Source: Candidatus Parcubacteria bacterium
GTDB taxonomy: Bacteria > Patescibacteriota > Minisyncoccia > UBA6257 > 2-01-FULL-56-20
Direction: 5' to 3'
DNA length: 64,000 nucleotides
Assembly: GCA_027324805.1 (NCBI GenBank)
Contig: DAHVRZ010000001.1
Location: 2,945-66,944 of the forward strand
Shown here: positions 1 through 47,773 of the stretch, piece by piece
How the letters are laid out: the number at the start of each line of letters is the position of its first letter
How positions within the stretch are numbered: the stretch's first letter is position 1
Made by a program: the position numbers and the translations under genes
The notes under the pieces: model-generated
Databases searched by the model: none
Told to the model about the DNA's origin: nothing
What the model saw: the letters and a program-made list of their open reading frames with translations, nothing else

Positions 1-1451
1 CTGCGCCGTTGCCGCGACGATCACATTCTGCCCTGCCGTGCCGCTGAAAGGAACGTTCTGCATCTGGCCCGCAAGCGTGGTGCTCACGGTCTGCATTGAA
101 TTCAGTGTTATGCCCGGATCGGTGACAAGCTGGGAATACGTGAACTGCACGGAGCCGCCTGCGCCACCCGTCCCGCCCCCTACGGAGGTCGTAAGATGCA
201 TAATATACGTTCCATTCTCCGGGAGAGTGCTCGTTACCATCATTGCGCCGGCGCCGGTCCATCCCGACCACAATATCGTCGAGCCGTCCGGTTCCACGAT
301 CGACCATGCCGATCCGTTGCCGCTCCAGAATACGCCAGACTGGTTCGATGCCGCGATGCTTACGTTATTGCCCGCCGTGCCGGTAAAGGTCACATTCGAT
401 GTCTGGCCGGGAAGCACGCTGTAACTCATGGGCGTATTAAGAGTCATTGAGGTCGTCGTCGGCGTGGTTAGGGTGAATGTCGCCGCCCCGACGCCGCTCG
501 GCATAGTGACATTGAATGTGTAAGTTCCCGTCGTCGGCGTGGTCGTCGCTACCGCGTACGGGCCGTATCCCGTGATGCTCGATGCAATCGTGTGGCCGCT
601 CGGATCAACGATGCTGATGGTCGCCCCGTTGCCGCTCCAATAGACGCCGCTCTCGTACGTTCCCGCGATCGTTACGGGGACGCCCGAAGTGCCGGCGAAG
701 GTGAGATTGATCGGCGTGCCGTTCGTACTCGAAACATTGATCGGTGTGCTGTACTGGATGCCGTACACGATAGGACCGCTCGAAGTGCCGCTCGCAACGT
801 TCGCGATCGATGCGCAGGACGGCGTACTCGATACGATATCGATCGGGAGCAGGTTGAGGGATGTCCCCTTCTCGTACATGTCGGCGTATTGGCCCCCGTC
901 CCCGGCGGGTTGGCTTTGGCTTCCGCCCGCGCCATACTTCTGCGATTCGAGCGCGGCGGTCAGCTCGTACTGCGTACCGTTCGTCTCATAGGTATAAAAA
1001 AGGCACGAAGATGCCGCGTCGGTGGGATCCACGGGAAGGCTCGGGAGTGGATTCCCCGAGGATATCTTCGAAAAATTGAGAGGTAACCATCCCGTGCCGT
1101 TCACGGCCGTTGCGGTGCTCGATGCCGGGCAGTGATATACCCATGGCGAAGGAAGAGCGACGAGGCTAAGCCCCTGACACTGATCCCCCGCGGTGGTGGT
1201 CGCCGTCGGGTCCGGCATGGATACATAGACGGTGTTCGCCGCGCCCAGCGAACCAAGGCCGTCCGCCTCGTATACGCTTACCGCGTTCGTAAGCGTATTA
1301 AGGTCGGACAGGCGGTTCGAATCCCTTCCCTGCTTCATAAGCTCGGAGGGATTGAGGACGAGCACCACGACGACCGCAAGGATCGCGATGATGGCGATCA
1401 CAATGAGAAGCTCAATAAGAGTAAAACCGCCGCCGCGGTGCTTGTGCTGCA
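1..1451 (-). CDS. Large type IV pilin-like protein (prepilin-type N-terminal cleavage/methylation domain); partial, C-terminus lies beyond window start
   Basis: Minus-strand reading frame open to the window edge. N-terminus MQHKHRGGG/FTLIELLIVIAIIAILAVVVVL is a class-III (prepilin peptidase) signal followed by NPSELMKQGRDSNRLSDL. Long Ser/Thr/Gly/Asn-rich body. Paralogous to the pilin at 43586..44866. Confidence 0.8.
1372..1418. repeat. About 47-nt near-identical repeat (pilin N-terminal coding segment), copy A
   Basis: GCAAGGATCGCGATGATGGCGATCACAATGAGAAGCTCAATAAGAGT. Paired with 44741..44787. Confidence 0.7.
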
Positions 1452-1502: not shown

Positions 1503-3077
1503 ATGGCGAAAAAAGTCATGGTGCTCGTCGTGCTCGACGGATGGGGCATCGGCAGAAACGACGAATCGAATCCGATTTATGTGACGAAGCCGCAGACGTT
1601 CGCACATCTCGACGCGACCTACCCCGTAACGAGCCTGCAGGCTTCGGGTATTTCGGTCGGTCTGCCATGGGGCGAGGTCGGCAACAGCGAAGTGGGGCAT
1701 CTCACGCTCGGTGCCGGCAAGGTGCTCTATCAGTATTATCCGAAGATCACCATGGCGATCAGCGACGGATCGTTCTTCCAAAATAACGTACTGAAGGACG
1801 CCTGCGCCCACGCGCGCGCGACGGGCGGCGCAATCAATTTCGCCGGACTCCTTTCGAAAGGCAACGTTCATGCGTCGCTCGAGCATCTCCTTGCCCTTAT
1901 AAAAATGGCGAAGGGTGAGGGCGTGCCGCACATCAATCTCCATCTTTTCGCCGACGGCAAGGATGTTGCGCCGCACACGCTCGAGGGATATCTCCGCGAA
2001 CTGCCGAAGGAACATCTCGCCACGCTCATCGGACGCTATTATGCAATGGATCGCGAGGGTAACTGGTCGCTCACGGAGACCGCATACCAGCTCATGACCG
2101 GCATGGGCGGCATCGGCAAGCCTGCGGAGAACGCCGATGCGACGGCGATCATCGAGGAGAGCTGTAAGGGAGGGCAGACCGAAGAATATCTTCCGGCGAT
2201 ACGCTTCGTGGACGGCACCGGTGCCGGCGCCACGGACCACGGGCACGTAAAGGACGGCGACTCCCTCTTTTTTTTCAACTACCGCGAGGACAGCATCCAG
2301 CAGCTCGCATCCTCATTCATTCTCCCGGACTTCAATAAATTCACCGTCATGCCGTTCAGAGATCTGCACGTGGCGACGATGACGCATTACAATGACGCGT
2401 TCAACGTACCGGTCGCCTTCCCCGCCGATACCGTAGAGAACCCGCTCGGCAAAGTGCTCTCCGATGCCGGACTTACCCAACTCCGCCTTGCGGAGACGTA
2501 TAAATACGCGCACGTCACCTACTTCTTCAACGGCTACCGCGAGCCGCCCTATCCCGGAGAGTTCCGCACGCTCATTCCCTCCCTCACCGAGCTTCATCCG
2601 GAACAACATCCGGAGATGATGGCGGGTGCGATCACCGATCGGCTCATCGAGGCGATCCGCGACCGCGCGTTCGATTTCATTCTCGTGAACTATGCGAACG
2701 GCGACACCATCGCGCACACGGCCGACTATCAGGCATCGCTCGCAACGGTGAAAGTGATTGACCGCGAGATAGGACGCCTGCTCGCCGCCGTTGGCGACGA
2801 TCAGGACACGATCATCGCCATCACCTCGGACCACGGCCACATCGAATCGATGATTGACGAGGCGACCGGCCTTCCAAGAAGCCAGCATGCCCCGAATCCG
2901 GTCCCCTTCTATCTTGTCGCTCCCCAGATCAAGGGCCGGCGCTTCGTGAACGCCGATAATCTCACGCAAGAGATGCTCGGCTCTCTCGCCGACGTCGCTC
3001 CCACACTCCTCGCGCTCATGGGACGCCCCGCACCCGCCGACATGACGGGCCGCAGCATCCTGGACGGACTCATTTAG
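1503..3077 (+). CDS. gpmI: 2,3-bisphosphoglycerate-independent phosphoglycerate mutase (iPGM), copy 1
   Basis: 524 aa. VLVVLDGWGIG...GNSEVGHLTLGAGKV and the C-terminal TSDHGH metal-binding region are typical of iPGM. Extended -10 TGaTATACT lies about 8 nt upstream of the ATG. Confidence 0.92.
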   Translation: MAKKVMVLVVLDGWGIGRNDESNPIYVTKPQTFAHLDATYPVTSLQASGISVGLPWGEVGNSEVGHLTLGAGKVLYQYYPKITMAISDGSFFQNNVLKDACAHARATGGAINFAGLLSKGNVHASLEHLLALIKMAKGEGVPHINLHLFADGKDVAPHTLEGYLRELPKEHLATLIGRYYAMDREGNWSLTETAYQLMTGMGGIGKPAENADATAIIEESCKGGQTEEYLPAIRFVDGTGAGATDHGHVKDGDSLFFFNYREDSIQQLASSFILPDFNKFTVMPFRDLHVATMTHYNDAFNVPVAFPADTVENPLGKVLSDAGLTQLRLAETYKYAHVTYFFNGYREPPYPGEFRTLIPSLTELHPEQHPEMMAGAITDRLIEAIRDRAFDFILVNYANGDTIAHTADYQASLATVKVIDREIGRLLAAVGDDQDTIIAITSDHGHIESMIDEATGLPRSQHAPNPVPFYLVAPQIKGRRFVNADNLTQEMLGSLADVAPTLLALMGRPAPADMTGRSILDGLI

Positions 3078-6982: not shown

Positions 6983-7066
6983 GCTGGGATGGCGGAACTG
7001 GCAGACGCACTGGCTTCAGGTGCCAGCGATCGCAAGATCATAGGAGTTCGACTCTCCTTCCCAGCA
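6983..7066 (+). tRNA. tRNA-Leu (anticodon CAG), class II with long variable arm
   Basis: Acceptor stem GCTGGGA/TCCCAGC (7 bp). Anticodon stem CTGGC/GCCAG with loop TTCAGGT. Variable arm GATC-GCAA-GATC. T-arm AGGAG TTCGACT CTCCT. Discriminator A. CCA not encoded. Confidence 0.85.
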
Positions 7067-7091
7067 CAAATCCACTGTTTTTATAAAATCA

Positions 7092-11264: not shown

Positions 11265-14200
11265 TTAAATCTTCCTAAGGCCGATCCAGGCCTCCTGCCC
11301 TTCCATCTTTGCCGTTTCTTCGGCAAGGAATTTTTCTCCGTGTTTGTATTCGACGCGCGCGGCGCCGATCTCCGTCATGAATATCTTTTCATTGTGCACG
11401 AGGGCCTGTGCCGCTTCCGCCGGCAGTGACGCCATCGCGATGATCTTGTCCCTCGGCGAAAGTCCCGCCTTCTGGCGCAGTTCCTGGAACATGCGCACCG
11501 CTTCCCGGAGGAGGCCCTCCCGGCGAAGTTCCGGCGTGATCACAGTATCGAGCACCGGCTCCTTCGCTTTCGCGTTCACGATCACTTTTTTCACATTCAC
11601 TTCTTCCGCAAGGATCGCCTCAAGCTCTTTGCTTAATTTCACATTCACCGTGACCGAAGCGAGCGGCTGGCGAACCTTGATCCCCGCCTCCGCGCGCTTC
11701 GCGAGGCCCGCGGCCGCCGATTCCCGCACTACCGCCATTTCCGCAATTAGCTTTTTGCCTGCCGCGGGGAGTTTTGGCGCCTTGGGCCATGTTTCAAGAT
11801 GGACCGACTCCTTCATACCGCCGAGCGCGGCGTAGAGCCCTTCGCTCATGAACGGCGTGAATGGCGCCATCATTGCGACGACAGAGAGGAGGGTATGGCG
11901 AAGCGTCGCCGATGCGGCCTTATGATCCGCAGCGGTCGTCGGTTTTTGAAGACGGCGGCGCGAACGGCGGATATACCATCGGGAAAGATCATCCACGATC
12001 GCATCGAGCTCAAGCGCCGCTTCCCGGATCTCATAGCGGTCGAGTTTCGCCGTTACGGACGCCGCCGTTTCATCGAGCCGCGCGAGGATCCAGCGGTCGA
12101 GCACATTCTTCGGGTTCGCCTTCCGGCCGGCAACCGCAGGCGCGAGCTTCGCCCCCCTGTCCGCATACGTCTTCCAGAACACGAATGAGTTATAGACGAT
12201 GAGATGGGTGCGGCGGAACGCTTTTGCAATCTCGTTCTCGTCGAAATTCTTCGGCTCGCCGAACGGCGAACCGGTATAGAAGTACCAGCGGACGGCGTCC
12301 ACGCCGTATTTATCAATCACCGCAAACGGCTCCACGATATTACCCTTCGACTTCGACATTTTTTTGCCGAACTTGTCATTGATGAGACCGAACGTGATCA
12401 CATTGCGGTACGGCGCTTTGTGGCCGAGCGCGGTCGCGATCGCCATGAGCGTATAGAACCACCCGCGCGTCTGGTCCATGCCTTCGGCAATGTAATCCGC
12501 GGGATATTCGAGGCCGGACAGCGTTTTTATATTCGTCTTCGGAAGGGAGAAGGGATAATGGGCCTGCGCATAGGGCATCGCGCCGGAATCGTACCAGACG
12601 TCCGCCACCTCGCGCACACGCCTCATCGTCCCATGGGCGTTCTTTTTTGCGCACGCGGCACACGGGAATGCGATCTCGTCCACGAAAGGCCGATGGAGAT
12701 CAACTTCGCCGCTATCGTTGCGCGGCACGGTTTTCAGATGGAGTTCGCGCACATCGGCAAATCCGATGAATGCGCCTTTTTTTTCTTTGGCGCCGCGCTT
12801 CTCCATCTCTTCGATCGCACGCTTCTCGCTCCACCCTTCGGCCGTCTGGAAGAGCGCCCAGGCAGGATACTCATGAGTCACGACCAGGATGTTCTTTCCT
12901 TCATATTGCTTCTCGCAATCCTCAAGGAACTTCCATACTCGCGAACGTACGTCGCGCACCGACTCGCCTCCTTCGGGACGCTTCTCAAAGCGCGATTCGA
13001 GCGTCGGGAAGAATTCGCGGTACTTCTCGTCACGGAGACCCGTAAGCGACGGGCCAAGATGGATCTCTTCGAGCCGCTTATCGGCCGTACATTCCTTCGC
13101 CGGCACGCCGAGCTCCTTCATCGCAATCTCTGCGGTCTCGGACGTGCGCTCGATGTCGGAATGGATGATGAGGTCGATCTTCTCCCTCCTCTTCTTGAGC
13201 GCCGCCGCGAATGCCTTTGCCGACCGGGCGGCCTCTTTCTTTCCGCGCGGAGTGAGCTTGAGATATTTACGCTGGCCGGAATCGAGGATATCGAAAATGT
13301 TGCTCTCCGCCTCGCCATGGCGCATCACCCAGTAGCGGTTCTTGGAACCGCCCGCAAGCTGCGAAAGTTCGTCCATGCTCCCCACCACCTCCTTGTGACC
13401 GCACCCGGCGCATTCCCATACCGGCAGAGGCGCGCCCCAGTAGCGTTCGCGCGAGAGGTTCCAATCCTTCACTTCCCGGATCCATTCGCCGAAGCGGCCC
13501 TTCTTTACGTGGGCCGGCATCCAGTTCACGGAGGCGTTGTTCGCCTGAAGCTCTTTGCGCAGCCTGGACATTGCGATGAACCACGAGGTGCGCGCGTAAT
13601 AAAGCACCGGCGTACCGCACCGCCAGCAGAACGGATATTCGTGTGCGTACGGTTCCGTGCGGAGGAAATTACCGTGCGCTTTGAGATGCTCGAGCACCGC
13701 CTGTTCGGTCTCCTTCGCCTTGGCGTACATGCCCGCAAGCATCGGCACGTCCTTTGTGAACTTACCCTCGTCATCCACGGTATGGTGTTCCGGCAGGCCC
13801 TCCTTCTTTCCAAGCGCGTAGTCGTCCTCGCCATACATCACGGCCGTGTGCACCACGCCCGTGCCGTCGGTCGTCGTCACGAACGACGCCGGATATACCT
13901 TGTATGATTTCGGCGATCTCAATTTCTCCACATCGAAGAGCGGCTCGTATTCAAGGCCGACGAGCTGTTCGCCTTTCACCGCCCAAAACTTTCCCGCGCC
14001 TTCCAGTCCGAGACTCGCGATCCGATCCGTTGCCGCAATCAGATATTCGTCCCCGACCTCCACCGCGCGATACTCGATCTTCGGCCCGACCGCGAGCGCC
14101 ACGTTGCCCGGCAAGGTCCACGGCGTCGTCGTCCACGAAAGGATGTATATCGTATCGGAGGGCTGTATGACGTGGCTTCCGATCTTCTGCCCCGGCTTCA

Positions 14201-14882
14201 GTTTGAACTTCACATATACCGACGTATCGGTCACTTCCTGGTAGCCCTGTGCGAGCTCGTGCGACGAAAGCGCGGTTCCGCATCGGGTACACCACGGCAC
14301 CACCTTGTGGCCTTTATAGAGCAGATCGCGCTTTGCGAGCCGGGACAGGCTCCACCAGATGGATTCGATGTATTCCGGCGCGTAGGTCACGTACGCGTTC
14401 TTGAGATCCAGCCAATAACCGATGCGGCGGGTCATGCGCTCCCACTCGTCTTTATAGATCCAGACTTGCTCCTTTGCAGCCTCGTTGAACCTCTTGATGC
14501 CATATTGTTCGATGTCGCGCTTCGTTTTGAAGCCGAGCGCTTTTTCGGCAGCCATCTCGACAGGAAGGCCGTGCGTATCCCATCCCGCCCGGCGCGGAAC
14601 ATGGTATCCCTGCATGGTCTTGTAGCGAAGGACGACGTCTTTAACGACGCGGGAGAGCACGTGATGGATGCCGGGCTTGCCATTCGCATACGGAGGCCCT
14701 TCGTAAAACACGAACTCCTTCGAACCCTTCTTCTTCGCGAGGGATTTCTCGAAAATATGCCGCTCATCCCAGAATGCGAGCACTTTTTCTTCCGTACCGG
14801 GAAGATTGAATCCGTCACCGAGGAAATCGGGCGCACTTTTGGATGAAAGTGGCACTGCTTTACGTCGCTGTTTTTTGGGCAT
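11265..14882 (-). CDS. ileS: Isoleucyl-tRNA synthetase (type 2-like) carrying an inserted histidine-phosphatase domain
   Basis: 1205 aa. HHVLSR(HIGH-like)...KMSKS. CP1 editing domain present. Zn-knuckle region WECAGCG ... FPCAACAK is interrupted by about 210 aa (approx residues 513-722; nt approx 12717..13346) with an intact RHGE, SDIERTSETA and VVTHEY histidine-phosphatase signature. Confidence 0.9.
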   Translation of the reverse strand: MPKKQRRKAVPLSSKSAPDFLGDGFNLPGTEEKVLAFWDERHIFEKSLAKKKGSKEFVFYEGPPYANGKPGIHHVLSRVVKDVVLRYKTMQGYHVPRRAGWDTHGLPVEMAAEKALGFKTKRDIEQYGIKRFNEAAKEQVWIYKDEWERMTRRIGYWLDLKNAYVTYAPEYIESIWWSLSRLAKRDLLYKGHKVVPWCTRCGTALSSHELAQGYQEVTDTSVYVKFKLKPGQKIGSHVIQPSDTIYILSWTTTPWTLPGNVALAVGPKIEYRAVEVGDEYLIAATDRIASLGLEGAGKFWAVKGEQLVGLEYEPLFDVEKLRSPKSYKVYPASFVTTTDGTGVVHTAVMYGEDDYALGKKEGLPEHHTVDDEGKFTKDVPMLAGMYAKAKETEQAVLEHLKAHGNFLRTEPYAHEYPFCWRCGTPVLYYARTSWFIAMSRLRKELQANNASVNWMPAHVKKGRFGEWIREVKDWNLSRERYWGAPLPVWECAGCGHKEVVGSMDELSQLAGGSKNRYWVMRHGEAESNIFDILDSGQRKYLKLTPRGKKEAARSAKAFAAALKKRREKIDLIIHSDIERTSETAEIAMKELGVPAKECTADKRLEEIHLGPSLTGLRDEKYREFFPTLESRFEKRPEGGESVRDVRSRVWKFLEDCEKQYEGKNILVVTHEYPAWALFQTAEGWSEKRAIEEMEKRGAKEKKGAFIGFADVRELHLKTVPRNDSGEVDLHRPFVDEIAFPCAACAKKNAHGTMRRVREVADVWYDSGAMPYAQAHYPFSLPKTNIKTLSGLEYPADYIAEGMDQTRGWFYTLMAIATALGHKAPYRNVITFGLINDKFGKKMSKSKGNIVEPFAVIDKYGVDAVRWYFYTGSPFGEPKNFDENEIAKAFRRTHLIVYNSFVFWKTYADRGAKLAPAVAGRKANPKNVLDRWILARLDETAASVTAKLDRYEIREAALELDAIVDDLSRWYIRRSRRRLQKPTTAADHKAASATLRHTLLSVVAMMAPFTPFMSEGLYAALGGMKESVHLETWPKAPKLPAAGKKLIAEMAVVRESAAAGLAKRAEAGIKVRQPLASVTVNVKLSKELEAILAEEVNVKKVIVNAKAKEPVLDTVITPELRREGLLREAVRMFQELRQKAGLSPRDKIIAMASLPAEAAQALVHNEKIFMTEIGAARVEYKHGEKFLAEETAKMEGQEAWIGLRKI

Positions 14883-17473: not shown

Positions 17474-17923
17474 ATGGAACCCTCATCCGCCCCCATCGCC
17501 GAGAACCGCCGTGCGCGGTTCGATTACGAAATAAAGGAAGCGCTCGAGGCGGGCATCGAGCTCGCCGGTTTCGAGGTGAAGAGCGCCAAGGCCGGCGCAT
17601 TCCAGATCGCGGGATCGCATGTGCTCATACGCGGCGGCGAAGCGTGGCTCGTGAATGCGCATATCCCGCCGTATCAGCCCAAGAATACGCCTCCCGATTA
17701 TGAAGAGGATCGCGCGCGGCGTCTGCTTCTTTCGAGCGCGGAGATCAAACGCCTGGAGGGCATCCTCCGCGACAAAATCCTGCACGCCGTCCCGCTGAAA
17801 GCCTATCTGAAGCACGGCCTCATCAAGCTTGAGGTGGCGGTGGCCCGCTCGCGGCGCAAATCCGACAAGCGCGACGTGCTCAAAAAACGCGCGCACCACC
17901 GCGAAATGCGGGAGGTGAAATAG
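17474..17923 (+). CDS. smpB: SsrA-binding protein SmpB
   Basis: 149 aa. IAENRRARFDYEI N-terminus and basic C-terminal tail typical of SmpB. Partner tmRNA found at 37590..37901. Confidence 0.9.
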   Translation: MEPSSAPIAENRRARFDYEIKEALEAGIELAGFEVKSAKAGAFQIAGSHVLIRGGEAWLVNAHIPPYQPKNTPPDYEEDRARRLLLSSAEIKRLEGILRDKILHAVPLKAYLKHGLIKLEVAVARSRRKSDKRDVLKKRAHHREMREVK

Positions 17924-26929: not shown

Positions 26930-28246
26930 ATGAACATAAAAACCATTCGCGCGCGGCAGATCCTTGATTCGCGCGGCAACCCAACCGTGGAGGCGGACGT
27001 TATTTTGGAAAACGGCGCAACGGGACGCGCGGCGGTCCCTTCCGGCGCTTCGACGGGCAGCCACGAGGCGATCGAACTTCGCGACGGCAATCCAAAACTC
27101 TACGGAGGGAAGGGCGTATTGAACGCGGTGGCGAACGCACAAAGCGAGATTGCGGCCGCGGTCACCGGCATGGATGCCGAGGATCAGAAAGCGCTCGACG
27201 AAAAGATGATCGCGCTCGACGGCACTCCGAACAAATCGCGGCTTGGCGCGAATGCGATCCTCGCGGTCTCGCTTGCATCCGCCAAAGCGGCGGCGGCGGC
27301 GAAGGGCGTCCCTTTTTTTGAGCACGTGAACGGACTCGGACGTGCGGCTGGCATCGCCGATGACGGCGGCGGCGCGACGCTTCCCGTGCCGATGATGAAC
27401 ATCATAAACGGCGGCAGGCACGCGGCCGGTTCGACCGATATCCAGGAATTCATGATCATTCCCGCCGGAGCGACGACATTCTCCGATGCGCTCCGCATGG
27501 GCACCGATATTTTCCATGCATTGAAGAAAGTGCTCGCGGGCAAGGGCTATGGCACGACGGTCGGCGACGAAGGCGGCTACGCGCCATCCGTAAAAGGAGG
27601 CAACGCCGAAGCGCTCGACCTTATCGGCGCAGCCGTATCCGCCGCAGGCTACACGCTCGGCACGGACGTCATGCTCGCGCTCGATGTTGCGGCATCGGAA
27701 CTCCGCGATCCTTCCTTTAATAACGGCGCCGGCGGCTATCGCCTTGCCACCGAAGACCGCTCGCTCTCGACCGACGAGATGATCGCCTGGCTCAAAGCGC
27801 TCGCAGAGAAATATCCGATCGCCTCCATCGAGGACGGCCTCGGCGAGGACGACTGGGCCGGATGGACCTCGATGACCGCCGCCATCCCACGACAGCTCGT
27901 CGGCGACGATCTCCTTGTTACGAATACCGAATTCCTTTCGCGCGCCATCGGCGAAAAGGCGGGCAACGCGATCCTCATCAAGCCGAACCAGATCGGCACG
28001 CTCACCGAAACGATCGCCGCGATAAAAATGGCGAAAGATGCGGGCTGGCGCACCATCATTTCTCACCGCTCCGGCGAAACGGAGGATGTGACGATCGCCC
28101 ACCTTGCCGTCGGGCTCGGCACGGGACAGATCAAGACCGGCTCGCTCTCGCGCACCGACCGCGTGGCGAAATACAACGAACTGCTCCGCATCGAAGAGAC
28201 TCTCGGCGCAAAAGCAACCTATCCCGGCAAGAAGATTTATGGATAA
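26930..28246 (+). CDS. eno: Enolase (phosphopyruvate hydratase)
   Basis: [25 protein letters not shown]-terminus. TATACT hexamer 6 nt upstream of this ATG (the ORF also has ATGs at 26924 and 26867). Stop overlaps the gpmI copy 2 start (ATGGATAA). Confidence 0.92.
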
Positions 28247-29825
28247 GATCAGGCCCGTAGCCCTGATCATCCTCGACGGCTGGGGTCACCGGGAAGACGC
28301 CTCTCATAACGCCATCGCCAAAGCACGCACGCCCTTCTTTGATTCGCTCCTTGCGCGCTATCCGCACACGCTTCTCGACGCGAGCGAGGAATACGTCGGC
28401 CTGCCGCACGGCCAGATGGGCAACAGCGAGATCGGCCATATGACGATGGGGGCCGGACAGGTCATTGACGTCGATCTCGTGAAGATCAACAAGGCCGCCG
28501 AGCACGGAGCATTTTCGACGAATCCCGCTTTCACCGAGCTCTTCGACCATGTGAAACGCCACGATGCCACCCTGCATGTGATGGGGCTTGTCGGCACGGG
28601 CGGCGTACATAGCCATCAGAACCATCTTCATGCATTCCTCCGCGCCGCGAAAGCGACAGGTATAACGAAGGTCGCCGTTCACGCAATTACCGATGGGCGC
28701 GATCTTCCTCCGCAAAGCGCCGCAAACCATCTCCGCGAACTCGAGGCGCTCCTCGCCGATCTCGGCATCGGCTTCATTGCCACCATGGGCGGCCGTTTCT
28801 ATGCCATGGACCGCGATAAGAACTGGGACCGCGTCGGGAAGGCCGAAGCGGCGGTCTTTGAAGGCAATGCTGCCCGGCGCGAATCCCGCACGCCGTCCGC
28901 AGTACTCGAAGAGTTATATAAAGAGGGCGTGATGGATGAACACCTTGAACCGGTCGTATTCCTCGACGGCATCGGCAGGAATGGAGCGGCGGGCGACGGG
29001 GGTGCAGCGTGGACGATCGGCGCGCACGACGGCGTTTTCTTCTTCAACTTCCGCCCCGACCGGGCACGCCAGATGACGGAGCGGTTCCTTGCGCACAGGA
29101 ATCCGCTCGATCTCTTCATTGTCACGCTCACCGAATACGACAAAACGCTCACTGCCGCCGGCGCTCACGTGGCATTCCCGCAAAGCCGTGCCACAACCTC
29201 GCTTGCAGCTGAGATCGCGGCCGGCGGACTCACGCAGGCGCACATCGCCGAAACGGAAAAGTATGCGCATGTCACCTATTTTTTCAATGGAGGCAACGAA
29301 GCGCCGCACAAGGGCGAACGATTCTATCTTATCGAGAGCCGCAAAGACGTTGCAACGCACGACCTTGCGCCCGAAATGCGAGCAAAGGAGATCGCGGATA
29401 CGGCAATCGAACGTATCGCCGCAGGTGATGATTTTCTCGTGGTGAATTTCGCGAACGCCGATATGGTCGGCCATACGGCAAACCGTCCGGCGATCGTGGC
29501 CGCGGTGGAAACCGTGGACCTCGAACTCCGGCGCATCGTGGATGCCATCCTCGCGCGCACCGGCGCGGCGATCGTAACGGCGGACCATGGCAATGCGGAA
29601 ATGAACAGAGATCCCGAGACCGGCGCACGCCACACCGCACATACCACGAATCTCGTCCCTTTTGTCGTCGCGTCAGACAACCCATTATTACATCTCCGTA
29701 CACGCGGCAGGACTGATGCCGGTCATGAAGCGTCAGGCACACTCGCCGATATCGCACCCACCATCCTCCATCTTCTCGGTCTTCCTGTTCCCGAAGGCAT
29801 GACGGGAAGAAACATGATCGAATAA
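28239..29825 (+). CDS. gpmI: 2,3-bisphosphoglycerate-independent phosphoglycerate mutase (iPGM), copy 2, translationally coupled to eno
   Basis: [20 protein letters not shown]...[15 protein letters not shown]. Roughly 35-40% identical to copy 1 by eye. Start ATG overlaps the enolase stop. Confidence 0.9.
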
Positions 29826-37073: not shown

Positions 37074-37526
37074 TTAGTGAGTGGCTGCGGTCGACGAAAT
37101 TCCCGCAGGCGTAGATGGGGGCATATCTTCGCAATGCCGTTTTACGGCAAAATAATACACGATGGCACCAATGATACCAAAAAGAAGAATAATGATTATC
37201 CAAAGTGCCTTATCATGGATCGGATGGCGGATGGCATGAACAAGCATCCATATCCAAAGGATCAGCGCAAGTATTGCGACCACGATGACAAACACGACTA
37301 TACCGAGTTCCAAACCAGCAACCCACGCTATCGGACCAAAAACTTGGCTACATGGCACAGGTTGGCCATTAACCATGCAATTCGACGAGGATGAGACTAT
37401 CGTCGTCTGGGCATGCGCTGCCAAAACACCCAACCAATTCATACAATCATTATAACACTCCCGGAAATCCAGTTTCCCTTCCGCCCAACTCCCCTCCTTC
37501 TGGGAGGAAATAGTCCAAATTGGCAA
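37074..37526 (-). CDS. Membrane protein with PLD-nuclease N-terminal-like (PLDc_N) motif, low-GC segment
   Basis: 150 aa. LWIWMLVHAIRHPIHDKALWIIIILLFGIIGAIVYYFAV resembles the cardiolipin-synthase N-terminal (PLDc_N) small-protein family. Confidence 0.5.
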   Translation of the reverse strand: MPIWTISSQKEGSWAEGKLDFRECYNDCMNWLGVLAAHAQTTIVSSSSNCMVNGQPVPCSQVFGPIAWVAGLELGIVVFVIVVAILALILWIWMLVHAIRHPIHDKALWIIIILLFGIIGAIVYYFAVKRHCEDMPPSTPAGISSTAATH

Positions 37527-37554
37527 ACTCGAAATAATGCACTATCCATAACGA

Positions 37555-37579
37555 AAATCGAACTCTTTTGGAGTTCGAT
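37555..37579 (-). terminator. Terminator hairpin immediately 3' of tmRNA
   Basis: Perfect 10-bp inverted repeat AATCGAACTC-TTTTG-GAGTTCGATT located 11 nt downstream of the tmRNA 3' end on the minus strand. Confidence 0.7.
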
Positions 37580-37589
37580 TCCGGGACTG

Positions 37590-37901
37590 TGGAGACGGGC
37601 GGAGTCGAACCGCCGTGTAATGATGGTGACGTGGGCCGTCTACGGGCGTAGTCTAAACGAGTTTAGGCAGAAATGGTCCTAGGTTCTCGCCCTGCGCATA
37701 GGGCCGTCTGCGCGAGGCCAGTCTCCTTGTATAAGACCGGTATCAGCTCAAGAGACCCGAACTGGCCGATCCCGAACTAGGCGAAAGCGAAGCTCGGAGC
37801 TGCAACTTTGGAGTTGGCAGTTATAGATTGTGCGGCGATTACGTCGCCGCCATCGGCCCGCAAACCCACGGAAGATCATTATCGAAGCCGGGTGCGTCCC
37901 C
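37590..37901 (-). ncRNA. ssrA: tmRNA (SsrA), standard one-piece form
   Basis: 5' GGGGACG pairs with 3' CGUCUCC-A, including the G3:U70 wobble (alanine identity). 3' tRNA-like T-arm GGCGG-UUCGACU-CCGCC. Internal tag reading frame GCC AAC UCC AAA GUU GCA GCU CCG AGC UUC GCU UUC GCC UAG gives (A)ANSKVAAPSFAFA*. 5' region GGGGACGCACCCGGCUUCGAUAAUGA resembles E. coli GGGGCUGAUUCUGGAUUCGAC. smpB present at 17474. Confidence 0.85.
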
Positions 37902-37962
37902 AATATTAAGATGCACATCCCCATGACAAATAACCGGATTCTCTAAAGGGAAATGCTTGGTT

Positions 37963-37991
37963 ATTATACTATATTTTTGAACTATTTGCAA
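37963..37991 (-). promoter_or_regulatory. Sigma-70 promoter driving the tmRNA precursor
   Basis: TTGCAA - 17 nt - TATAAT on the minus strand, about 60 nt upstream of the mature tmRNA 5' end (leader presumably removed by RNase P). Confidence 0.7.
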
Positions 37992-38070
37992 TTTACTCGC
38001 GCCAAGGAAACGGCCGCTCCTCCGGTGGTATAATAAAACTGCAAAGGTCGTAATACGGGCTTTCCTTATT

Positions 38071-38307
38071 ATGGACACCTCTTCAGTACCGGAACAGGGC
38101 ATGAAGCATGAGATGCACGGCACGATCTGCCGCCATCCCCGCCATAGAGCGGTTCCCATTCTCGCGATCATCATCGGATTAGAGTTTTTCCTTGCCGAGA
38201 TCGGCGTGCTCACGTGGGAGTTTGTGAATGTCACTTGGCCGCTTCTTCTCATCGTTGCCGGCATCGTCGGTCTTTCCGGCCATCACTATCATTATCACGA
38301 CCAGTAG
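38071..38307 (+). CDS. Possible small membrane protein (low confidence)
   Basis: 78-aa ORF with two hydrophobic helices and a His-rich C-terminus (HHYHYHDQ). No clear RBS. Overlaps the tmRNA promoter region on the opposite strand. Confidence 0.25.
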   Translation: MDTSSVPEQGMKHEMHGTICRHPRHRAVPILAIIIGLEFFLAEIGVLTWEFVNVTWPLLLIVAGIVGLSGHHYHYHDQ

Positions 38308-44883: not shown

Positions 44884-47361
44884 TTATTCCGCAACAAAAT
44901 CAAACGTATCATTCTGATATATGAGCTTTACCCTGTTCCCTTTGAGTACCTTCCTCCCAAGGATCGCCTGCGAGAGCGGCGCACGGACCTTCTCGTCGAT
45001 CACGCGGCGGAGCGGGCGGGCACCGTATGCCGGATCATAGCCGAGCTTCGCGATCTCCTTGAGCGCCTCCGGCGCGAAATCGAGATAGATACCCTTCTCC
45101 TTCATTATGGAAACCAGCTCTTGCACATTCAACTGCACGATCTTCATAAGATCATCCGGATCGAGGTTTTTGAAAATAATGATCTTCGAAAAACGATTGA
45201 GGAGCTCCGGTTTATATACATCCGTGAGGCGCGCCTTCACATACTCGGCGATCTGAGACATGGTCTCTCCCTGGCCAAGCGCCTGGTTGATGATATCGGA
45301 ATGCGCATTTGAGGTTGCGATGATGATCGTATTCGTAAAATCCACGACACGGCTCAGATTGTCGGTGAGCCGGCCGTCATCGAGGACCTGGAGGAAAAGA
45401 TTGAGGATATCGGGATATGCTTTCTCGAATTCATCGAGCAGGATAAGGCTGTAGGGCTTCGAGAGGACGGCATCGGTAAGTGCGCCGCGTACCGAACCGT
45501 CAGGCGAGCCGATGAAGCGGTAGAAGCTGGTCTTATCCTGGTATTCCGTCATATCGAAACGAACCATCATCTTCTCCGATCCGAACTGGATCTCGGCAAG
45601 TATCTTTGCGAGTTCGGTCTTGCCGACGCCGGTCGGCCCCACAAAGAGGAAACTCGCGATGGGACCGCCTTTACGCGTAAGGCCGGAGCGATATTCGCGG
45701 ATGGCATCCGCCACCGCCTTCACCGCCTCTTCCTGATCCACAAGCTTCCGGTGAATAAGATCCTCCATGTGAAGCAATTTCTCCGCTTCATCGCCTTCGG
45801 CCTCATGCATCGGGACGTTCACCCTTTCCTCGGCGACCGTGGTCACCCGTTCCGGACCGAGCCTTTTCTCACCGCGCCGTTCCGCGTCTACGAGTGCACT
45901 CTTCAAAAGCTCTTCCGCGCTCGAAGGGAGGAATTTATCATGCATATACTTCTTGGCGAGCATCACGGCGCGTTTGATCGCACCAAAACTTATTTCGATA
46001 TCCGATTCATCCTCGAGAAGTACGCTTTCATACGTGAGCACACGCTCCGCCTCCTCTTCCGTAATCTCGGCCACCGGAATCGTTTCAAAAATGGCAACGA
46101 AGTCGCTTCGCGGTTCGATGAGCTGTTTGAACTCGCGCGGATAGGTCGAGCCGACGACGGGAAACCGATTTTCCATAATAATGGGCATCAGGGCGTCGGC
46201 GGCGGAAAGATATGCGGTTCCCGAAGTGCGTACCAGATTATGGAGATCGGGGATATAAAGAATGACATTGCCCGCCTCGAGTATCTCTTCCACGATCATT
46301 TTGAGCCGCGCTTCAAGTTCCTCGGGTGCCGCGCCGGCAACGAGACTCGACAAATGGAGTCCCACCAGCCGTCGGTCAAAGAGCCCGCTCGGCACGTTAT
46401 CCTTTACAAGCGCGAGCGCGAGGTGATGTATGATCGATTCCTTGCCGATACCCGGCTCGCCGATGAGGATCGCATTGGGATTGACGGGCCTCGCGAGTGT
46501 CTCGATGAGCCTCCCGTATTCCGCGCCGTGGCCGATGAGGAATCCTGTTTGCCCGTTGCGGGCAAGGTCGGTATAATCGGTGCCATAATGGTCGAGCGTC
46601 GGCGTCGGACGCGCGGTCCATGCACGGTTCATTACACGATGCTTCGCCACGCGATGTGTGCCGATGCCAAAACCGCCGAGGGCACGCGGCAGTCGATGGA
46701 ACCACCCGTGACTCACGAGCGATCCAAAAAGGAGTGCGCGTTCCAGGTCACCCGGTTCGATCGAGAACTGATTGAAGAGACGATCCATCGCATCGCCTCC
46801 CGCCTTCGGAAGGGCCGAGAAAAGGTCCGGCGCAGTGATGAATTCGTGACCCGCCTTCACCGCTTGGGCGAATGCCGCCGTAAGGAGCGCTTCGATCGTC
46901 CGGATGGTCTCCTCCCTCGATGCCTTACCGGCAGGTCGATCCGGTGCATCCGACTCATTGAACAATGCGTCGAGCTTCGTCTTGAAATCCTCCGGCTTCA
47001 CATCGAGACGTCGCAGGCCTTCCGCGATTACCGGCGACTCAAAGAGTCGCCGCGCAAGTTCAAGGGAAAAATCCTTCTTTGTGATGCTGCTGCGGTCAAG
47101 CGCACGATCAATAGCCCCGAACGCCGCAGGCGATGTCACGCGGGAGAGATTCACCCTCCCGTCGCCGAACGATATCTCCGATATCGGCATATCCCCTTGA
47201 CCACGATGGACGACCAGGTCACCCGAGAAAAGAAGAAGGAACAGCCCGATCCACACCAAAAAGTGAATGCCCGAAAAAAGGAATGCGAACATCGCCGCCA
47301 CGAGGACAACGCCGACGATCCAGCTTGCCACGCGGACAATCATACGGCCCCCGACCGTCAT
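44884..47361 (-). CDS. Membrane-anchored Hsp100/Clp-family AAA+ ATPase (ClpC/ClpB-like) with degenerate first nucleotide-binding domain
   Basis: Two N-terminal TM helices then Clp_N-like repeats. D1 Walker A GEPGIGKES and Walker B ILYIPDLH are degenerate. D2 Walker A GPTGVGKT and Walker B LILLDEFEKA are intact. No IGF/IGL ClpP loop and no long M-domain. The track ORF extends to 47418, overlapping the upstream gene. Confidence 0.85.
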   Translation of the reverse strand: MTVGGRMIVRVASWIVGVVLVAAMFAFLFSGIHFLVWIGLFLLLFSGDLVVHRGQGDMPISEISFGDGRVNLSRVTSPAAFGAIDRALDRSSITKKDFSLELARRLFESPVIAEGLRRLDVKPEDFKTKLDALFNESDAPDRPAGKASREETIRTIEALLTAAFAQAVKAGHEFITAPDLFSALPKAGGDAMDRLFNQFSIEPGDLERALLFGSLVSHGWFHRLPRALGGFGIGTHRVAKHRVMNRAWTARPTPTLDHYGTDYTDLARNGQTGFLIGHGAEYGRLIETLARPVNPNAILIGEPGIGKESIIHHLALALVKDNVPSGLFDRRLVGLHLSSLVAGAAPEELEARLKMIVEEILEAGNVILYIPDLHNLVRTSGTAYLSAADALMPIIMENRFPVVGSTYPREFKQLIEPRSDFVAIFETIPVAEITEEEAERVLTYESVLLEDESDIEISFGAIKRAVMLAKKYMHDKFLPSSAEELLKSALVDAERRGEKRLGPERVTTVAEERVNVPMHEAEGDEAEKLLHMEDLIHRKLVDQEEAVKAVADAIREYRSGLTRKGGPIASFLFVGPTGVGKTELAKILAEIQFGSEKMMVRFDMTEYQDKTSFYRFIGSPDGSVRGALTDAVLSKPYSLILLDEFEKAYPDILNLFLQVLDDGRLTDNLSRVVDFTNTIIIATSNAHSDIINQALGQGETMSQIAEYVKARLTDVYKPELLNRFSKIIIFKNLDPDDLMKIVQLNVQELVSIMKEKGIYLDFAPEALKEIAKLGYDPAYGARPLRRVIDEKVRAPLSQAILGRKVLKGNRVKLIYQNDTFDFVAE

Positions 47362-47398
47362 CCGCAGACGCGGATCGTCGAGATAGAGCGAGGAAGGA

Positions 47399-47773
47399 TC
47401 AAAAGGTCTTTGCCGCATAATAAAGGGTTATAAAGGGGATTATGAGCCAAATCGCATATATAAAAAGAAAACAGACGGCAATCACGAGATAGGCGAACAA
47501 CCCGACAATAATGCGGCCTGTCCGGAAGATAAAACCCAGAATGCGTCCTACAAATGTGTAGTCCTTATAGAGTGGTTCAAAGAGGTGCCGAAGCGTCACC
47601 CGGAGCGCAAGCGACCGGTCGGCCGAAGCGATTGCCGCCATAAACCTCCTCCCGAATGCACGGGAGCCGTCGATATACCAATGATGGAAAAACTCGAATA
47701 TCCGGTAGAAAAAGCGTCCCGCGAGGTACGTCACACTGAAATCCATATCATAATCATAAATCCCAAGCTCCAA
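47399..47773 (-). CDS. Possible membrane protein upstream of the Clp ATPase (low confidence; TTG or internal ATG start)
   Basis: 124-aa ORF with two C-terminal hydrophobic helices. Overlaps the clp-like start region. Confidence 0.3.
   Translation of the reverse strand: MELGIYDYDMDFSVTYLAGRFFYRIFEFFHHWYIDGSRAFGRRFMAAIASADRSLALRVTLRHLFEPLYKDYTFVGRILGFIFRTGRIIVGLFAYLVIAVCFLFIYAIWLIIPFITLYYAAKTF

Follow-up and report, generated by a model that had tools for sequence, protein, structure and literature searches.

Does the minus strand of a 64,000-nt stretch of contig DAHVRZ010000001.1, from a Candidatus Parcubacteria bacterium (the whole stretch is called the window here), carry a working gene for transfer-messenger RNA (tmRNA) at 37555..37991, and what is to be made of its tag peptide, which ends in AFA rather than in the common LAA? 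An earlier reading of the window, referred to below as the original prediction, had proposed such a gene. We find that the locus is almost certainly, as judged from its sequence and that of its relatives, a functional, chromosomal, one-piece tmRNA (ssrA) gene of Patescibacteria (Candidate Phyla Radiation, CPR; probably Parcubacteria/Paceibacteria-like). It is an ordinary ssrA, a gene for the RNA with which bacteria universally rescue stalled ribosomes, readily detected by standard tools, and every structural peculiarity that it has is one with precedent.

Gene call, relatives and fold

The gene finder ARAGORN called three genes in the window, one of which is a tmRNA at 37589..37901 (-) with the tag ANSKVAAPSFAFA followed by a stop. 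The Rfam covariance model for tmRNA, RF00023, matched 37587..37901 (-) with 111.7 bits (gathering threshold 47 bits; E 7.9e-43) over model positions 1-374 of 374, and the match was not truncated. Both programs thus called at full length the tmRNA that the original prediction had placed on this strand, with the tag exactly as predicted. The accompanying statement that no open reading frame (ORF) explains the region stands only in part: two mechanical ORFs do overlap it, at 37839..38264 (-) and 37413..37682 (+), and it is the former that is without a family match. This 141-aa ORF, which overlaps the 5′ end of the tmRNA, was rejected as spurious because it has no family match and lies antisense to a conserved small gene.

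Relatives were collected by scanning a species-representative genome collection with the exact 3′ half of the tRNA-like domain (25 nt), which gave 49 loci, and by scanning metagenome contigs with a pattern from the region of the second pseudoknot, independent of the tRNA-like domain, which gave 80 more. ARAGORN calls over all of the collected loci (numbered with the prefix L, and including named genome records, unnamed assemblies and metagenome contigs) defined a family of 77 tmRNAs, that of the window counted, with lengths of 306-328 nt and a median of 314. The loci whose tmRNA is about 310 nt long and has a similar tag belong to assemblies named Candidatus Parcubacteria, Paceibacterota, Minisyncoccia, Saccharibacteria, Patescibacteria group, or simply "bacterium". 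The closest relatives are L008 (DAIEHA010000008.1, "Candidatus Parcubacteria bacterium"), at 94% identity, and L030 (JAKABL010000002.1), at 93%. Exact matches to the 25-nt probe were also found in L002 (319-343; Xanthomonas nasturtii) and L004 (6082-6106), where no tmRNA or tRNA was called; in L004 the gene probably runs past the end of the fetched locus, and the L002 match could be a chance occurrence or an attachment-site remnant.

The secondary structure was drawn by hand from the sequence and the alignment, which gave 86 base pairs, and was scored on alignments of 15 and of 66 sequences (the latter made with MAFFT). As controls, the 3′ partners were slid by 1-3 columns, and 500 shuffles were scored. 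It was found that standard pairs occupied 94.4% of the cells with 15 sequences and 93.2% with 66, in comparison to 34-43% in the slid controls. Pairs changed on both sides numbered 42 of 86 and 56 of 86, respectively, and none of the 500 shuffles matched the observed values. The features of the locus are as follows (PK, pseudoknot).

37963..37991 (-): putative sigma-70-type promoter; -35 box TTGCAA (37991..37986), 17-nt spacer, -10 box TATAAT (37968..37963); consensus scan, 10/12 positions
37902..37962 (-): region from the -10 box to G1, 61 nt, holding the predicted start site and about 55 nt of 5′ leader; U at position -1
37590..37901 (-): mature tmRNA body, G1 to discriminator A312; ARAGORN, RF00023, and 93-94% pairing in the relatives
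37901..37895 / 37597..37591 (-): acceptor stem GGGGACG / CGUCUCC, G3:U included (tmRNA 1-7 / 305-311); read from sequence, RF00023
tmRNA 21-46 / 255-284 (-): helix 2, in three sections; supported in the alignments of relatives
37832..37855 (-): putative compact PK1 (tmRNA 47-70); hairpin 52-57/65-70 and a second stem 47-49/58-60 of 2-3 bp
37777..37818 (-): tag frame, from resume codon GCC (37818..37816) to stop codon UAG (37779..37777), encoding ANSKVAAPSFAFA; ARAGORN coding part 84-125
37772..37797 (-): helix 5 (105-109/126-130); the loop has the stop codon at its 3′ end; 15-sequence alignment
37720..37771 (-): PK2 (tmRNA 131-182); long hairpin 131-143/153-167, with loop 145-150 pairing with 177-182
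37675..37718 (-): PK3 (tmRNA 184-227); stem 184-192/205-213, with loop 197-203 pairing with 221-227
37653..37666 (-): simple 5-bp hairpin (236-240/245-249), standing in for PK4; 5/5 pairs covary in the 15-sequence alignment
37614..37598 (-): T-arm GGCGG-UUCGACU-CCGCC (tmRNA 288-292 / 300-304); read from sequence, RF00023
37580..37556 (-): perfect 10-bp hairpin AAUCGAACUC-CAAAA-GAGUUCGAUU, then UUCGUUAU; starts 10 nt past the discriminator
17474..17923 (+): smpB, for the protein partner that tmRNA requires; Pfam PF01668 (E 4.1e-43) and NCBIfam NF003843, the SmpB equivalog (153.6 bits, cut-off 130)

The proposed pairing of the 5′ GGGGACG with the 3′ CGUCUCCA, G3:U included, holds on the exact sequence, except that the final A is the unpaired discriminator. 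The G3:U pair, which is the alanine identity pair, is retained in all 66 relatives, and acceptor pairs 4-6 covary across them (GC/AU/UA, AU/GC and CG/UA). The T-arm is likewise exact in its pairing and covarying or intact across the relatives, with 99.4% of cells paired over 66 sequences and three covarying pairs (the variants are GGCGG/CCGCC, GAGGG/CCCUC and GGCAG/CUGCC). The 3′ end of the gene reads ...CUCCA-CAG, with a single C after the discriminator A; the 3′-terminal CCA is not encoded and therefore must be added post-transcriptionally. Relatives are mixed in this respect, some encoding CCA and others not. Genes of the tRNA-like type are commonly without an encoded CCA, and membership in tmRNA is not excluded thereby.

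In a comparison of pseudoknot content with the related tmRNAs, it was found that PK2 and PK3 are present, with a putative PK1 in compact form, and that PK4 is reduced to a hairpin. The PK1 hairpin was 90-93% paired, with compensatory changes, and in its crossing stem two pairs hardly vary, whereas a third is formed by just 11 of the 66 sequences; pair 47-60 changes from CG to UA in 3 sequences. Helix 5 was paired in 100% of cells (15 sequences), with compensatory changes in four of its five pairs, and PK2 was 98-100% paired, with compensatory changes in both stems. The first stem of PK3 had such changes in 9/9 pairs, and the second had them in three (66 sequences). The segment between PK3 and helix 2d, 23-35 nt long, formed a single hairpin of 4-9 bp in 66/66 relatives when each was folded separately, and the stem sequences of this PK4 substitute differ between clades. 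A value of only 54% for pairing of its inner pairs in the 66-sequence alignment was set aside as an artefact of differing loop lengths, in view of the individual folds.

A typical tmRNA is about 360 nt long (PMC8012679). The reduction of PK4 to a small hairpin accounts for the length of 313 nt and for a stretch of the RF00023 match in which 18 nt stand for 50 consensus positions; together with the compactness of PK1, it shortens the window tmRNA by about 50 nt relative to the E. coli type. The number of pseudoknots is known to vary within the tmRNA family, and in alpha-proteobacteria pk4 is a single helix ("helix 11"; Burks et al. 2005, PMC1168896).

The tag frame and its conserved end

The internal frame from GCC AAC to GCC UAG that had been proposed is present. 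It has no start codon; the resume codon GCC lies at tmRNA 84-86 and the single stop UAG at 123-125, in the loop of helix 5. The codons are GCC AAC UCC AAA GUU GCA GCU CCG AGC UUC GCU UUC GCC UAG, which give 13 encoded residues ending in SFAFA. Across the family, the tags have 12-17 residues and are variations on AN(S/T/N)(K/N)VAAP(A/S)FA(F/Y)A. The tags of L030 and L085 are identical to that of the window, and that of L008 is nearly so (ANSRVAAPSFAFA).

Of the 53 distinct tag frames, 49 resume on GCC or GCA. The final Ala is kept in 51, with all four GCN codons in use (GCG, GCC, GCT and GCA); Phe or Tyr stands at position -2 in 52, Ala at position -3 in all 53, and Phe, Leu or Tyr at position -4 in 52. 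Because these C-terminal residues are conserved while their codons vary, the tag C-terminus is under purifying selection at the peptide level. Such selection is a good, although indirect, sign of translation of the frame and of something that recognises its C-terminus.

The last three residues of the 77 family tags are AFA in 41, AYA in 32, AFV in 2, AVA in 1, and those of a frame-shifted outlier (L037) in 1; the most frequent last four are FAFA (38), FAYA (22), LAYA (9) and YAFA (3). The observation that the window tag ends in AFA and not LAA was thus correct, but the oddity that it implied is tempered, as AFA or AYA closes the tag in 73 of the 77 family members. The AFA ending is a norm in the lineage and is not peculiar to the window gene.

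Several other observations concern the frame. The stretch GUUGCAGCUCC (37796..37806, tmRNA 96-106), which encodes V-A-A-P, is at least 90% conserved in the 66 relatives, third codon positions included. In contrast to the freely varying codon of the C-terminal Ala, this suggests a constraint at the RNA level; the stretch partly overlaps the 5′ strand of helix 5. ARAGORN misread the tag (as AGREPRTISA, "coding part 205-237", in one example) in at least the three closest relatives, L008 (6421..6734), L030 (315..625) and L085 (368..680), which have UAUACUGCC in place of UAUAACUGCC before the resume codon; read by hand, their tags are ANS(K/R)VAAPSFAFA. Therefore, automatic tag annotation is unreliable in this clade. 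In L037 (6219..6546, -), one extra T in the tag frame (GCAGCUUCCGG) gives ANTKVAASGVRVCLIG, in comparison to ANTKVAAPAFAFA in the near-twin L014, and reflects either a misassembly or a genuine frameshift.

Promoter, processing and genomic setting

The promoter elements named in the original prediction were found upstream of the gene. We take TTGCAA-17-TATAAT as a real promoter because the motif TTGCnn-17-(R)TAGTATAAT is kept upstream of the tmRNA in five relatives, among them L030, L008, L085 and L116, in which the flanks diverge. A second promoter-like site, TTGTCA-16-AATATT (37929..37902), abuts G1 and was rejected, as transcription from it would begin within the acceptor stem. Between the -10 box and G1 lie 56-61 nt in four sequences (the window, L030, L008 and L116) and only about 10 nt in L085 and L056. 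The leader is thus of variable length, and it must be removed, presumably by RNase P, as in other tmRNAs (PMC3985003). The same comparison indicates that a leader block of about 45 nt was gained or lost within this group of close relatives.

Downstream of the gene, the 61-nt stretch with the hairpin had a folding energy of -19.4 kcal/mol (z -3.5). The hairpin is conserved in L030, and unrelated hairpins lie at the same position in L085, L056 and L008. The downstream hairpin is probably a terminator or a 3′-processing signal, a role with which the hairpins of the relatives are consistent.

The smpB gene that had been noted at 17474 was confirmed by Pfam and, above its cut-off, by the NCBIfam equivalog. 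Other housekeeping genes in the window encode ArgRS, IleRS, RNase J, CTP synthase, a Mur ligase, pyruvate kinase, RuvA, peptide deformylase and LexA.

Several observations weigh against a functional gene. The unencoded CCA makes function reliant on a CCA-adding enzyme, none of which was seen in the 64-kb window. Only 2-3 bp make up the second stem of PK1, with an A.A mismatch in the window, so that formation of this pseudoknot is weakly supported, and PK3 has one C.A mismatch. Furthermore, the consensus scan made no intrinsic-terminator call on the downstream hairpin, because its U-tract is weak; of the terminator that had been predicted, it is the perfect 10-bp hairpin that stands. The two stem mismatches, and the low posterior probabilities of the RF00023 alignment over the pseudoknot region, where 18 nt replace 50 consensus positions, could be expected of a decayed, non-functional tmRNA relic or of a chance tRNA-like sequence beside a short ORF. 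We regard such an origin as extremely unlikely: the score of 111.7 bits (E 8e-43) was obtained over the full model, compensatory changes maintain every helix across the 66 relatives, the shortened region is a conserved family trait rather than decay, the promoter and tag are conserved, and smpB is intact. The mismatched pair of PK3 is restored as U-A in L030.

It could also be asked whether the functional gene favoured here is chromosomal. tmRNA genes are well-known integration targets, and the gene might lie on a phage, a plasmid or an integrated island, or its 3′ end might be an integration site with foreign genes downstream. The G+C content drops to 0.49 at 36-38 kb, in comparison to about 0.56 elsewhere, and the downstream ORFs encode small membrane proteins or proteins of no known kind, as might be seen in a mobile element. 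Nevertheless, a blastn comparison of the tmRNA with 50,697 phage records gave no match, the 3′ 22 nt occurred only once in the window even when up to 3 mismatches were allowed, and no integrase family was found among the downstream ORFs scanned. The first 100 nt or so downstream, hairpin included, are common to the window and L030, and core housekeeping genes lie in the flanks. A mobile origin is therefore very improbable, and we assign the gene to the chromosome of a Patescibacterium because its relatives are in Patescibacteria assemblies, its neighbours are housekeeping genes, and neither a phage match nor a 3′-end repeat was found.

Some neighbouring genes are recorded here in their own right. 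A 78-aa His-rich small membrane protein is encoded at 38071..38307 (+), divergent from ssrA, and has no Pfam or NCBIfam family match; L030 has a counterpart with 72% identity over 46 residues, together with a bPH-type ORF upstream. Upstream of the 78-aa gene, the window, L030 and L008 have an extended -10 box, TGGTATAAT (window 38026..38034, +) or TGGTATACT, and a AAAGGTCG box. A tRNA-Leu(CAG) at 6983..7067 (+) was called by ARAGORN and missed by the whole-window Rfam scan; because a focused scan gave 49 bits (cut-off 29), we consider the tRNA real and the miss a filter effect. The isoleucyl-tRNA synthetase (IleRS, 1205 aa; 11265..14882, -; NCBIfam ileS, 858 bits) has a histidine-phosphatase domain (Pfam His_Phos_1, E 2e-28) inserted at about residues 518-688, which divides the synthetase match into two parts and is unusual in an essential enzyme. 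Two paralogous genes for cofactor-independent phosphoglycerate mutase (iPGM_N plus Metalloenzyme), at 1503..3077 (+) and 28104..29825 (+), lie within 27 kb.

Function of the tag and comparison with known tmRNA systems

The best-supported explanation of these features is ordinary trans-translation. For this model, the anatomy of sequence and structure, the conservation and covariation, the selection on the tag C-terminus and the presence of smpB come from the present analysis, and the steps of transcription, processing, charging, trans-translation and proteolysis are drawn from general tmRNA biology (PMC8012679). The TTGCAA-17-TATAAT promoter would drive transcription of an RNA with a leader of about 55 nt, the 5′ end of which would be cut to G1 by RNase P; the 3′ end would be trimmed past the discriminator A and receive CCA from a CCA-adding enzyme. 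The G3:U pair would let alanyl-tRNA synthetase load alanine onto the RNA. Ala-tmRNA, with SmpB (17474..17923) and EF-Tu, would then enter ribosomes stalled on broken mRNAs and donate its alanine, and the ribosome would move to the internal frame at GCC, so that the nascent chain ends in (A)ANSKVAAPSFAFA upon termination at UAG. The hydrophobic and aromatic ...FAFA-COOH end would finally target the protein to some ATP-dependent protease. It follows that ssrA should be annotated in the source genome, and that ssrA and smpB together point to the presence of a standard ribosome-rescue system.

Most bacterial tags end in LAA and are directed mainly to ClpXP. One may ask whether the ...(F/L)A(F/Y)A-COOH end is instead a degron tuned to Lon or FtsH, convergent with the NYAFA and NFAFA ends of Mollicutes, in a lineage of reduced genome that has lost or altered ClpXP. 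There is precedent in that Mollicutes are without active ClpXP, and their NYAFA-ending tags are read mainly by Lon (PMC9382460, PMC8403727). The likeness of ...SFAFA and ...AFAYA to this ending is suggestive, and Patescibacteria, too, have reduced genomes. The (F/L/Y)A(F/Y)A ends of the present family are also under peptide-level selection, and no ClpX, ClpP or SspB gene was found among the window ORFs scanned. However, the window is only 64 kb, so the absence of clpXP there says nothing of the genome, and the tags have 13-14 residues in comparison to about 27 in Mollicutes. Moreover, a terminal Ala with a free carboxylate, as in LAA tags, could suit a co-evolved ClpX. A scan of 0.86 Mb (the window and 131 loci) for signature motifs of Lon, ClpP, ClpX and FtsH was uninformative: it found one FtsH, in L017, which says nothing on the presence or absence of the proteases. 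Our search of the literature for tmRNA, Clp or Lon in Patescibacteria, CPR or Parcubacteria found nothing on point: no paper on proteases or tmRNA tags in Patescibacteria, and none discussing a family-wide A(F/Y)A tag end there. A Lon- or FtsH-directed degron is thus possible but, in our estimation, doubtful. The same tentative standing applies to the wider idea that Patescibacteria swapped the near-universal ...LAA degron for (F/L)-A-(F/Y)-A in a switch from ClpXP to Lon or FtsH, convergent with Mollicutes, of which the window gene would be one typical example.

One candidate of the Clp type was observed in the window, an 844-aa ClpA/ClpB-like double AAA+ protein (44884..47418, -) with a hydrophobic, probably membrane-spanning N-terminus and an altered first Walker A (GEPGIGKES). 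Its second module has no IGF-type ClpP-binding loop, and it falls below every NCBIfam equivalog cut-off. An orthologue with 57% identity starts at about 5209 (+) in L111, likewise a few kb from the tmRNA; an "IGF" with which a Clp-like protein of L111 ends was dismissed as a chance occurrence of the motif.

Whichever protease reads its tags, the family is marked by an aromatic ...A(F/Y)A tag end under strong conservation and by an architecture of three pseudoknots, of which PK1 is putative. Should the tag end mirror a shift in protease, as it does in Mollicutes, evolution would have converged in a second, independent radiation with reduced genomes. The tag end could also provide short orthogonal degradation tags for synthetic biology. 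As matters stand, the A(F/Y)A end in Patescibacteria is a minor curiosity, and the window locus itself is unremarkable.

The E. coli SsrA has 363 nt and the tag AANDENYALAA. The window tmRNA resembles this type in its tRNA-like ends with G3:U, T-arm and discriminator A, in helix 2, in a putative PK1 upstream of the resume codon, in an Ala-codon frame without a start and with the stop in the helix-5 loop, in PK2 and PK3, and in its SmpB partner. It differs in length (313 nt in comparison to about 360), in having a 5-bp hairpin for PK4 and a second PK1 stem of 2-3 bp, in its unencoded CCA, in a tag that ends in FAFA rather than LAA, and in a single UAG stop. With the Patescibacteria tmRNAs of L008 and L030, it has the architecture and promoter motif in common, and the sequence differences are small; some relatives differ in that they encode CCA, and L085 in its very short 5′ leader.

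As in alpha-proteobacterial tmRNA (PMC1168896), one helix substitutes for the fourth pseudoknot, and the reduction of pk4 in that group makes a reduced ring of pseudoknots an established natural variant. Many alpha-proteobacterial tmRNAs are two-piece (permuted), whereas that of the window is one-piece and from an unrelated phylum, so that the reduction of PK4 presumably occurred independently. Finally, the window tag, ending in SFAFA, has the (Y/F)AFA motif of the tags of Mollicutes such as Mesoplasma florum and Mycoplasma (...NYAFA/...NFAFA), which likewise combine an aromatic-Ala-Phe-Ala C-terminus with a genome-reduced host (PMC9382460, PMC8403727). It is unlike the Mollicutes tags in its 13 encoded residues, in comparison to about 27 (27 in M. 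pneumoniae, PMC8403727), and in its unrelated upstream portion, ANSKVAAP.

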